Shown one piece after another: positions 10,746 to 46,356 of a stretch of 64,000 nucleotides of DNA (its first letter is position 1; each line of letters opens with the position of its first letter). The DNA is from Bacteroidota bacterium (GTDB taxonomy: Bacteria; Bacteroidota; Bacteroidia; M30B66). A program made the position numbers and the translations under genes. Under the pieces are notes generated by a model. The model did no database searches. It was not told where the DNA came from and saw only the letters and a program-made list of their open reading frames with translations. Location of the stretch: positions 24,792-88,791 of the forward strand of contig JAIXUS010000078.1 in assembly GCA_027483445.1 (NCBI GenBank), written 5' to 3'.

Positions 10746-12572
10746 CTACTCGGACTTGAGCAAGGGAAATGAAAATCGTTCGTTTTGACGCTCTACTATC
10801 AGAAAATAAGCTCCGGATGAAAGGTGAGTCAAGGTAAATGCGCTATGTCCGGCTGCTATCCGTCGGCCATCCACAATTTTACCGCTCAAATCGGTAATAT
10901 AAAGTTGGTCATCAGCCTTTAGGCCTTGAATGTTTAATTCGCGCTGAAACGGGATTGGCCAAATGTTCAGAAGAGGACCTCCAGTGAAGGACTCGATGCC
11001 TGTGACCACATTCAGGTTGGTGGTTACAACGCTATCACAGCCATTTGCAGCGACGAAAACATCGATATAGGTTTCTTCTTCGGTATATGTGCTGTTTCCG
11101 ACCGAATAGCTTTCGCCTTCGGTAATCGTTACATTCTGATTGGTATTTATGTTTGGAATCACTGAAAGTTGCGTGGTAACCAAGCTGTCGCAACCACTTG
11201 GCAAGCTGAGTAAATCTGTATATGTGCCACTTGAATTGTAGGTGTTGTTGCCAACAATAACCGATTCTCCGCTACAGATGCTCATTACTTGGGTTGAAGA
11301 AACCTCTGAACACTCTCCCTGTATTCGAACGATGGCAAAATCGTTTTGCCCTTGGAAGTCGGTACTTCCTACCAGTACAATTTTACCATCTGCTTGTAGT
11401 GCTACGGCATGGGCATAATCATATGTTCCCGAAATATCGACGGTTGTTTTTCCATCCATGCTAAAAAGATTGTCAAGTGTTCCATTGGGCAAATAGCGCA
11501 ACACCGACATGTTGTATAGATTGTAATTCGAGTAACCAGCGGCAACAATTCGTCCGTCGGCATCTAAACTGAGGTCGGTCAAATTATCAAACGAATCGCT
11601 CATGTCAGTTTCAACGATGCCATCACCACTAAATGAATTGTCGAGACTTCCATTTGAATTGAATCTGGCAAGCGCAAAATCAACGTTACTGGTCGCGGAA
11701 ATCAATAATTTTCCGTTAGACAGTTGTAAAATTCCTGTGGCAAAGTCATCATAAGCATCCAATGAAAGGGTTCGAATCCCATCGCCATCAAAGCTTGCGT
11801 CGAGCACTCCATTCGACAAATAGCGAACTACGGCCACATCACTGTAACTTCCGTCGCTCACAAATCCTGCCACTGCAATTTTTCCATCGGCTTGTTCGAT
11901 TAAATCTAAGGCAGTGCTGCTTGCACCAATTTCGGTGAGTAGTTGACCTGTTCCATCACCGAACGATTGATCTAATGTGCCATTGCTGTTTAATTTTAAT
12001 ACGGTGATGTGAGTTCATGCACCGGTATAGCCTCCGCTGCCGGCCAATAATATGGAACCGTCGGTTTGTATAGCCAATGAATTTATGCTGATGCTTCCTT
12101 CGAGGCTGTAGGAAAACATTCCATCTCCGCTAAATGTGGCATCAAGCTCGCCGTTTGGCAAGTAGCGCGCAACGGCCATGATGAAATATGAGCCAACCAA
12201 GGTTGCTCCTGCAACTACAATCTTCCCATCGGTTTGCAATGCGGCACACTCGGCCACTGAAATGTTACTACTCCCAAATTGGGTTTCAACTTTGCCATTT
12301 ACCCCAAAGTTTAAATCTAAACTACCGTCGGAATTCAACCTGACCAAAGAAAATTTATTAATAAAGTTGTTATTGCAACTTCCTACAATAATTATCTTCT
12401 CATCCGGTTGAATTAGGACATCTTTTGCTTCATCATTCTCCGTATGAAAGTCGAGAATTATCTTGCCACCGAGTCCAAAGGAATTGTCTAAAACACCAGG
12501 CTGAGCCATGGTTGGATTTCCGTTCAGAAAATGGAAGATGCATATAACCATCAATAGGATTGCGGTTTTCAT
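10746..12572 (-). pseudogene. T9SS type-A sorting domain protein with delta-60 (beta-propeller) repeats, interrupted by a single in-frame TGA at 12015-12017
   Basis: ORFs 12015..12686 and 10746..11873 share a frame. The 141 nt between them translate without stops as THITVLKLNSNGTLDQSFGDGTGQ...EQADGKI, a normal delta-60 repeat. C-terminal T9SS CTD present (WPIPF...SGAYFL). Confidence 0.85.
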
Positions 12573-12740
12573 TGTAGCGTAGTTTGTTTGAAAGTGCAAA
12601 TTAGAATTTATGACTGAAACAGAAAACGAATGGGTTGTTTCATGGTGGATGAATCGAGTGTATGGGTATTTCTGAATTGCATTCAATGAATTTAAATTTA
12701 CCTACTACGATTAAATATGTGCTGAGTAAAAAGAACAGCC

Positions 12741-12960
12741 AAACGGAATATTAATTTCTACTTACCACCCCGAAATCTGTTGATGAAATGGTCGTGTAGA
12801 CTGGATTTTTTTCTTGACAATTGGGGAGAAATAGGCGAGGGGATTCCCACAGCTTTCCCCTTCCCGGTTTAAAGTTCGGCCTCAGCGACATACGCCCGAC
12901 TCCCCGATTTTTTTTAAATCAACAGCACTGTGGAAAACCCGGTGGATGAGTGGTGGAAAA
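12741..12960. repeat. 220-bp direct repeat, copy 1
   Basis: Aligns ungapped to 13095-13314 with 6 substitutions (214/220 identical). Confidence 0.97.
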
Positions 12961-13094
12961 CGCAGAGCACTCTATAAAATCGAGGAATAACTCAGCTTTT
13001 ATTTTTTTTGGGGTCCATTCAGTACAAAATGGGTGGAAATCCAACCCAAACGATGCAATGTTCGCCTCTTGTACTTTGGCTTCCTGAAATGGAA

Positions 13095-13314
13095 AAACGG
13101 AATATTAATTTCTACTTACCACCCCGAAATCTGTTGATGAAATGGTCGTGTAGACTGCATTTTTTTCTTGACAATTGGGGTGAAATGGGCGAGGGGATTC
13201 CCACAGCTTTCCCCTTCCCGGTTTAAAGTTCGGCCCCAGCGACATACGCCCGACTGACCGATTTTTTTTAAATCAACAGCACTGTGGAAAACCCGGTGGA
13301 TGAGTGGTGGAAAA
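13095..13314. repeat. 220-bp direct repeat, copy 2 (period 354 bp, 134-bp unique spacer)
   Basis: Manual alignment to 12741-12960. Confidence 0.97.
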
Positions 13315-13470
13315 AGAAATATCAGACTCTTAAGTCAAGTGGTGGGGCAGAATTCCTAAAGCAGGGCAATTAACCTAGATCCTTTCTCGATTGACTCTTG
13401 GTTTTCGAAACGGTAATTGTTTCATTTTATAAGTCCTGAAAAAGAGGTTTTACTTCACTCATTCGACAAA

Positions 13471-13770
13471 ATGAAAAACATTCAATCGTTGGCATATAGT
13501 CATCAAAAAAACAATTGAAATGCTTGATGCTCTTCGAAAAGCTTATTATTGGGGGCGTTATTTATATGAAGAATTGTGGAGATCAGAAAATGACTCCAAT
13601 AGTGCTAACGGTTTGTTCGGTTGTATGGCCTTACTCTCAATCTAGAAACACTACAGAGGCAGGGCTACGAAGCATAGCTGTTTTATACCGAAAAAAATAT
13701 TGCACGTGTTAATTCAATGGTGAATGGATTTTAGAATGTCAACCGCAAAACTCACATCTAGCCCTATTCA
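13471..13770 (+). pseudogene. Possible decayed gene remnant of unknown family
   Basis: Protein-like frames MKNIQSLAYSHQK / MLDALRKAYYWGRYLYEELWRSEND... / LETLQRQGYEA*LFYTEKNIARVNSMVNGF* broken by an A7 run and stops. Confidence 0.25.
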
Positions 13771-46144: not shown

Positions 46145-46356
46145 TAGGGCTTACTGAAAAACACTCAGTAGTTTTATTTGTAGCACTTTCGTCCCTGTTT
46201 AATTGAGGCTTAATGCAAGGGTTTTAAGTCTGGCTTTTGAAAATCCATTCACTCTTAAGTTCATGAAGTTCAATTTTTCGTTAGCCAGAAATACAACATC
46301 TGCTTCGTTGCCCGCAGCTCGCATCTGCCGCATTTCTGGCTTTTTCAATAAGCCCT
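46145..46356 (+). mobile_element. MITE-like element copy B, both terminal inverted repeats, about 35-bp internal deletion
   Basis: Left TAGGGCTTACTGAAAA, right TTTTCAATAAGCCCT (1 mismatch); body colinear with the reverse complement of 51639-51880. Confidence 0.8.

Follow-up and report, generated by a model that had tools for sequence, protein, structure and literature searches.

Non-coding elements that occur in several copies per bacterial genome are known both as small-RNA (sRNA) genes and as intergenic repeats. The Qrr1–5 genes of Vibrio are paralogous sRNA genes with three features in common, namely ~30 nt of invariant sequence, a promoter for an alternative sigma factor and a regulator site upstream, the rest being variable. 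In the cyanobacterium Nostoc, NsiR1 is encoded by a tandem sRNA array at a single locus with HetR-dependent promoters, and in Listeria the genes lhrC1–4 are also arranged in tandem. REP/BIME, BOX, and ERIC elements are intergenic repeats built on stable palindromes or hairpins. LhrC1–5 of Listeria monocytogenes are multicopy sRNAs under LisR control, with UCCC motifs (PMC4132741, PMC5880928), and NgncR_162/163 of Neisseria have been described as "sibling" sRNAs (PMC9973317).

Here, we describe a family of ~160–220-nt non-coding units from a few uncultured freshwater Bacteroidota that appears to be undescribed; the kind to which it belongs, whether multicopy sRNA genes or intergenic repeats, is already known. 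Two of the units lie in the 64,000-nt stretch of DNA analyzed in this study (the window). As in LhrC, there are several near-identical units of ~100 nt, some of them in tandem; in LhrC, every unit comes with a LisR-regulated promoter and a terminator of its own and with C/U-rich UCCC pairing motifs, and the core of the present units contains UCCC, CCCC, and UUCCC. Unlike the LhrC RNAs, which were shown experimentally and have defined stem–loops and canonical terminators, the present units are known from sequence, their promoter is non-canonical, and no structure is supported; moreover, their host phylum, Bacteroidota, is without Hfq-type and SD-based mechanisms, and there is no sequence similarity between the two families. 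The units resemble the Qrr genes in having an invariant stretch of ~30 nt amid a variable remainder, but the Qrr genes are dispersed, single, sigma-54-dependent, and present in 4–5 copies, whereas the units number 10–26 per genome, often form arrays, and have no sigma-54 motif. They share with NsiR1 a head-to-tail arrangement of short units, each with its own (here putative) promoter and terminator, although the arrays occur at many loci and in several subfamilies rather than at a single locus. Like REP/BIME, BOX, and ERIC elements, the units are multicopy, intergenic, often located at gene ends, patchily distributed among relatives, and modular; unlike them, they lack a significant fold, carry a promoter-like TTG, and occupy syntenic sites under strong constraint. 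Within the phylum, a parallel is the Flavo-1 RNA motif (Rfam RF01705), another orphan non-coding, multicopy, intergenic element of Bacteroidota, but the units have no Rfam match and their architecture differs.

For uncultured freshwater Bacteroidota, an abundant group, next to nothing is known about regulation by RNAs or by repeats. The family offers a searchable sequence signature, strong evidence of selection, concerted evolution of tandem copies, and a probable non-housekeeping type of promoter. Should the units prove to be sRNA genes, they would be among the first multicopy sRNA families of the phylum and would open a way into the regulon of an alternative sigma factor; should they be repeats instead, they would represent a Bacteroidota equivalent of REP/BOX elements, built in an unusual, promoter-like manner.

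Two copies of the unit at the window locus

An earlier note on this DNA had reported two 220-nt direct copies, 97% identical and separated by a 134-nt spacer within a gene-free gap, and our comparison reproduced each of these observations (Table 1). The copies, hereafter units a and b, differ by six substitutions, the number that had been reported. We located them at positions 12804, 12827, 12833, 12882, 12902, and 12903, all of which fall within the variable leader and the segment before the T-run; the TTG, the core, and the 3' module are identical in both units. No convincing ORFs were found in the region, and the spacer contained neither an ORF nor an Rfam match. The T9SS gene with a nonsense mutation on the left side was also recovered, its single in-frame TGA being located at 12015–12017. 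A sister species (G008) does not have this beta-propeller gene at the orthologous locus, and its unit pair comes directly after dinB. To its right, the window pair is followed by two minus-strand genes with FHA domains. The "decayed ORF" that had been proposed on this side (13515–13712) was not confirmed: it had no Pfam match, and the DNA surrounding it shows no conservation in the sister species.

Table 1. Positions of the two units, their parts, and the left neighbor in the window
Feature	Position	Counterpart in unit b	Strand	Basis or remark
Unit a, type-A family member, full 220-nt repeat	12741–12960		+	Repeat comparison
Unit b, 97% identical to unit a	13095–13314		+	Repeat comparison
Inter-unit spacer, weakly conserved	12961–13094		.	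59.6% identity to the orthologous G008 spacer vs ~48% shuffled
5' arm of unit a: TTTCTAC... and CTGTTGATGA (TGTTGAT motif)	12755–12786	13109–13140	+	
T-run, then CTTGACAAT, containing the invariant TTG	12806–12821	13160–13175	+	
Nearly invariant core GGGGATTCCCACAGCTTTCCCCTTCCCGG, proposed RNA 5' seed	12839–12867	13193–13221	+	
Conserved AAAGTTCGG, then variable segment with AAWAC motif, CCCGAC, and T8	12871–12915	13225–13269	+	
3' module: ATCAACAG-CAC-TGTGGAAAA, GGTGGATG, GGTGGAAAA	12918–12960	13272–13314	+	
Left neighbor, outside the element: T9SS-secreted DUF5122 beta-propeller gene with Por_Secre_tail	10746–12686		-	One in-frame TGA

Copy number and distribution of the family

The pair had been taken for a one-off duplication, but it is one locus of a 10-copy family. 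When the unit was searched against the 4.26-Mb assembly from which the window derives (G000, a MAG in 87 contigs), 10 copies with 72–100% identity were found at seven loci on six contigs. At three of these loci the units are paired, their starts lying 354, 359, and 360 nt apart. The copies in this genome share a common part of ~160 nt, which extends from the T-run and CTTGACAAT through GGTGGAAAA(C), and most of them additionally have the 5' arm of ~55 nt. The three pairs (C39:60590–61260, C40:14680–15350, and 12709–13369 of the window) can be aligned over their full length of ~520 nt, spacer included, at 68–76% identity, so that a pair with its spacer looks like a higher-order unit that has itself been copied. 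Elsewhere in the genome, the sequence TTGATAATTCCTGTTGATGGATTAGGGAA (C45:61117–61145) brings a TTG, a TGTTGAT motif, and AGGGAA close together; it may be related to the unit, in degenerate or minimal form.

Members in other genomes were searched for with a degenerate core pattern and then with a sequence-only covariance model. The resulting collection comprises 83 units in at least eight subfamilies, with 1–4 units per array and array periods of 141, 155, 157, ~190, 200–260, ~297, and ~355 nt. Related units are present in seven of 25 species of the same order. Five of the 10 species of the genus carry 10–14 units each and the other five carry none; in a sister genus, two species have three units each. 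A further 26 units were found in an unrelated MAG labeled Weeksellaceae (G413), which is the sole carrier among 31 genomes, no units being detected in its 30 nearest relatives. Approximately 400 other sampled genomes of the class, outside the window's own family, also had no units, and a scan of the JGI metagenomes returned only three true members and no new context. In one array of G001 (contig C100), the third and last unit (L102:2380–2450) is truncated: the T-run, CTTGACAAG, and the leader are kept and the core is missing.

The core pattern also gave 11 matches in viral contigs, but these were rejected as an unrelated GC-rich phage family or as chance matches. The phage group in question (IMG/VR contigs L117–L123, L125, and L126) is GC-rich and unrelated to the units, and shares ...CACCTTGTATC-CCCGCACCTTTCCCCTTCCCCAAAAA... 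among its members. Several of its contigs end 37–78 nt past this motif, which suggests that the site is a genome end or a repeat.

Anatomy of the units

The order and spacing of the motifs are fixed across the eight or more subfamilies, and the leader and body are variable. In most subfamilies, a unit opens with an A/T-rich tract, followed by (Y)TTG(R), which mostly takes the form TTGACA or TTGGAA. The TTG is invariant in all of the ~70–83 units and lies 23–24 nt upstream of the (T/A)AGGGAA with which the core begins, across a variable leader of 16–18 nt. The core itself is nearly invariant over the 83 units and reads (T/A)A-GGGAA-(0–4 nt)-(T)CCC-N-CA-N-CT-W-TCCCCTTCCC-(R)G. It is followed by (A)AAGTT and, ~45 nt past the core start, by an AAWAC motif. 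A variable segment then leads, in type A and in the G413 units, to a T-run of 5–8. In compact arrays, the place of this T-run is taken by a TGTTGAT-based inverted repeat and a T-rich tract that runs straight into the next TTG.

TGTTGAT-type motifs form, in type A, a 45-nt 3' module after the T-run; in other subfamilies, a module homologous to it sits just upstream of the TTG of the next unit. The 3' module carries the motifs that the earlier note had called DnaA-box-like, and a single CTGTTGAT occurs in the 5' arm of type A, an arm that is found in most type-A copies but not in all. The units are intergenic and mostly located at the 3' ends of genes. At ~70% of the loci, the downstream neighbor is convergent, from which it follows that the unit is not the 5' leader of a gene.

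Purifying selection and concerted evolution

The sister species G008, whose coding flanks are 81–86% identical to those of the window genome, has units at six of the seven loci, in synteny. At the window locus, the orthologous units of the two species are 82.4% identical, whereas the 514-nt right intergenic flank is 49.8% identical, compared with ~50% for shuffled sequences. As the flank does not exceed the shuffled level, neutral DNA is saturated between these species, and the units are under purifying selection. Within each species, the two copies are more alike (97.0% in G000 and 94.1% in G008) than the orthologous units are. The tandem copies therefore evolve in concert and are homogenized, by gene conversion or by unequal crossing-over, and this accounts for the 97% identity of the window copies. 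Over longer evolutionary distances, there is turnover of units: an array of three units, present in synteny in five species from two genera (including G001), corresponds to an empty 64-bp gap in G000.

Promoter-like elements and candidate terminators

The motif TAnnTTTG is the canonical promoter consensus of Bacteroidota (PMC9723704, PMC7366714). In the window genome, it was found upstream of 23 of the 39 tRNA genes, compared with ~1.4 expected by chance. In these 23 cases, TAnnTTTG(C) is mostly located 13–32 nt before the tRNA gene, with a TTG 21–22 nt upstream of the box; these promoters are a useful yardstick for further findings in this genome. The TTG of the units resembles the -33 element of Bacteroidota because of its position 23–24 nt upstream of the core, and A/T-rich tracts precede the TTG in the units and in the tRNA promoters alike. 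The units have no housekeeping TAnnTTTG -7 box, and inspection by eye together with a scan for the sigma-54, sigma-32, ECF, and sigma-70 consensus gave no convincing fit. Elsewhere in G000, the TTG-N-AGGGAA arrangement was found only in units and as chance matches. Judged from the TTG and its placement, the units carry a putative promoter, probably of a non-housekeeping, alternative-sigma type.

In type A and in G413, the body leads into T-runs of 6–8; a scan detected no canonical GC-rich stem immediately ahead of these runs. In unit a, the stretch from AAAGTTCGG to the T8 may be a hairpin with a U-tract, non-canonical and without covariation. Weak hairpins with U-tracts, as candidate terminators, were read by eye in two subfamilies. 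On the plus strand of the G413 subfamily, a hairpin with G·U pairs is followed by a U-tract (GGRUUU..AAACCU-G-U6), and in the 141-nt subfamily, GAAUUAACA-GUCG-UGUUGAUUU is followed by a U-rich tract.

RNA structure and coding potential

A search with the Rfam 15 covariance models returned no relevant match at E ≤ 10 between 12000 and 14200 and none at the gathering score in the window; at six loci of other subfamilies, there was no match at E up to 0.1. Two structural features had been proposed for the window copies. The inverted ends, CTGTTGAT and ATCAACAG, are indeed present in both, but they are not kept complementary in most paralogues, which have ATGAACAG. For the GC-rich branched fold, a prediction was obtained with copy a (z = -2.4) but not with copy b (z = -0.1) or the paralogues; the fold shows no covariation and fails the terminator scan. 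Across single-sequence folds compared with shuffles on both strands, no significant energy was obtained (z from -2.4 to +1.1), and alifold applied to the 10 copies gave only invariant short hairpins. When the 5' leader was tested for duplex formation with the segment preceding the T-run, cognate pairing was no better than non-cognate pairing. Three hand-built helices examined over 19 copies contained no compensatory pairs, and shuffles scored equally. A structured RNA of the riboswitch or ribozyme-like type was consequently rejected, there being neither covariation nor energy beyond that of shuffles.

A protein-coding micro-gene was also excluded, because indels of 0–4 nt in the core shift the frame while the surrounding nucleotides stay invariant. 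In some subfamilies, a frame of 46–47 amino acids spans the units, and the 141-nt period is divisible by three; the same core indels tell against it, and the periods of 155 and 157 nt are not divisible by three.

Sibling small-RNA genes as the favored reading

The earlier note had offered three readings of the duplication: a duplicated promoter/sRNA module, a DnaA-titration site, and a recombination or expression site at which cargo is exchanged. The first fits best, given the TTG, core, body, T-run, and selection, although it is unproven. We tentatively favor the view that each unit is a small independent transcription unit, a "sibling" sRNA gene with a C/U-rich seed, and hold it with somewhat less than even confidence.

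From the sequences, we infer that the units are transcribed, which strand is read, where the RNA would begin and end, and how it would act. The -33-like TTG and the (T/A)AGGGAA 23–24 nt downstream of it would be recognized by RNA polymerase, the sigma factor probably being an alternative one. GGGAA would be part of a downstream promoter element, and the length-variable stretch leading to CCC would precede the start site; that the distance from GGGAA to CCC may differ by 0–4 nt is consistent with sequence lying between such an element and the start. If transcription begins within or just after GGGAA..CCC, the 5' end of the RNA would be the G-poor, C/U-rich (R)CA-N-CU-W-UCCCCUUCCC. This seed could pair with purine-rich sites in target mRNAs, or a protein could bind it; screening for targets complementary to the core yielded no informative candidates. 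Since Shine–Dalgarno sites are largely missing from the mRNAs of Bacteroidota (PMC6847099), a seed of the anti-SD type is less obvious. The variable body and T-run, or in some subfamilies the inverted repeat and U-rich tract, would end the RNA after ~70–110 nt, and the TGTTGAT-type motifs would be regulator sites. The bias toward convergent neighbors also fits a free-standing unit. Such a layout would match that of multicopy "sibling" sRNAs, among which LhrC1–5 offer the best-known parallel.

Several observations count against an sRNA gene. The consensus scans located neither a promoter nor a terminator in the unit, and folding energies and helices gave no sign of RNA structure. The conserved 45-nt module after the type-A T-run is needless for a simple sRNA gene. 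In addition, the patchy presence of the units (five of 10 species in the genus and one of 31 genomes around G413) and their high copy number are more like those of a spreading repeat.

Alternative readings

The main rival to sRNA genes is an intergenic repeat of the REP/BOX/ERIC kind. Such a repeat would be non-autonomous, spread and homogenized by recombination or by a trans-acting enzyme. Any action it had would be in cis (as an insulator, terminator, stabilizer of mRNA ends, or outward promoter), without a trans-acting RNA. We consider this a serious possibility, though on balance a doubtful one. It would account for 10–26 copies in many subfamilies per genome, for on/off presence among congeneric species and a lone 26-copy carrier among 31 related genomes, and for a position between genes and mostly at their 3' ends. 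The ends of type A form a weak inverted repeat, TTTTCTACC...GGTGGAAAA, matching at eight of nine positions; the array locus of G001 is empty in G000; the contigs of the sister MAG (G008) break at units; and the RNA-structure tests gave no support, all of which is as expected of a repeat. No target-site duplication, however, was found, comparisons of filled and empty sites gave no clean junction, and a survey of neighboring genes revealed no transposase, RAYT, or recombinase adjoining any copy. MITEs seldom form head-to-tail arrays of constant period, and the units have no stable palindrome of the REP type. Six of the seven loci are syntenic and their units are 82% identical even though neutral DNA is saturated, which implies selection at the level of the host. 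The sRNA and repeat readings are compatible and not exclusive.

The same surveys bear on two further proposals. The suggestion that the locus is a recombination or expression site at which cargo is exchanged was not sustained: the spacers are gene-free, no recombinase lies near, and synteny between the two species is kept at six of the seven loci. An inverton was also rejected, as CTGTTGAT and ATCAACAG are complementary in just a few copies, no recombinase is near, and the neighbors are ordinary, including PNPase, aldehyde dehydrogenase, peptidases, and T9SS cargo across the loci.

It is rather unlikely that the units serve as arrayed binding sites on the DNA, of the TGTTGAT type or the GGGAA..TTCCC palindrome, that titrate or store a protein (DnaA among the candidates) or organize the nucleoid and yield no RNA product of importance. 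Conservation that is purely at the sequence level, without covariation, would suit such arrays, as would the tandem arrangement, the palindromic or repeated motifs (ATSAACA-N4-TGTTSAT and GGGAATTCCC), and the 11–12-nt distance between boxes of the 3' module. On the other hand, the spacing between GGGAA and CCC varies by 0–4 nt, which a dimer site would not tolerate, and the half-sites of the inverted repeats are often mismatched without co-varying. The case for DnaA is weakened further. The box that had been described as perfect, TGTGGAAAA, matches the consensus TTATCCACA at eight of nine positions, and there is one such box per copy; in other subfamilies, its place is taken by TGTTGAT/TGTTGAAAA, variants with two mismatches. 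Boxes with no more than one mismatch number 1016 in the genome, compared with ~910 expected by chance, and a genome scan for clusters detected no 300-bp window with four or more boxes. The dnaA gene (C9:208507–208992) has no boxes nearby and no copy of the unit near it, and GC skew has no extremum at 12.7–13.3 kb. With boxes at chance frequency, no cluster at dnaA, no switch in skew, and ten copies spread over six contigs, neither an origin or a datA- or DARS-like cluster nor the DnaA titration that the earlier note had envisaged was borne out.

A more speculative extension of the sRNA reading, and something of a long shot, is that the units are a horizontally spreading "sRNA cassette" consisting of a promoter and a seed, which would move among distant Bacteroidota (for example, into G413), multiply in tandem, and become domesticated by its host; or that the 30-nt core would serve as a handle for a dedicated protein that travels with it. 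Finally, an assembly artefact or a recent, inconsequential neutral duplication, which the 97% identity of the copies and the 87-contig MAG might suggest, is scarcely credible, and a pure assembly artefact had rightly been doubted, given that the orthologous pair (94% alike) comes from an independently assembled species, that G000 has two further pairs with the same 354–360-nt period, and that the units are conserved where the flanking DNA is randomized.

A second dispersed repeat

A second repeat of ~250 nt, unrelated to the units, is dispersed in more than 30 copies with 71–90% identity in the window genome, including 46145–46323 of the window and C40:15395–15629. Its copy in the window has no Rfam match. 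Further copies lie at L064:9192–9445 and L070:6194–6356, and in G008 the repeat directly adjoins two of the units.
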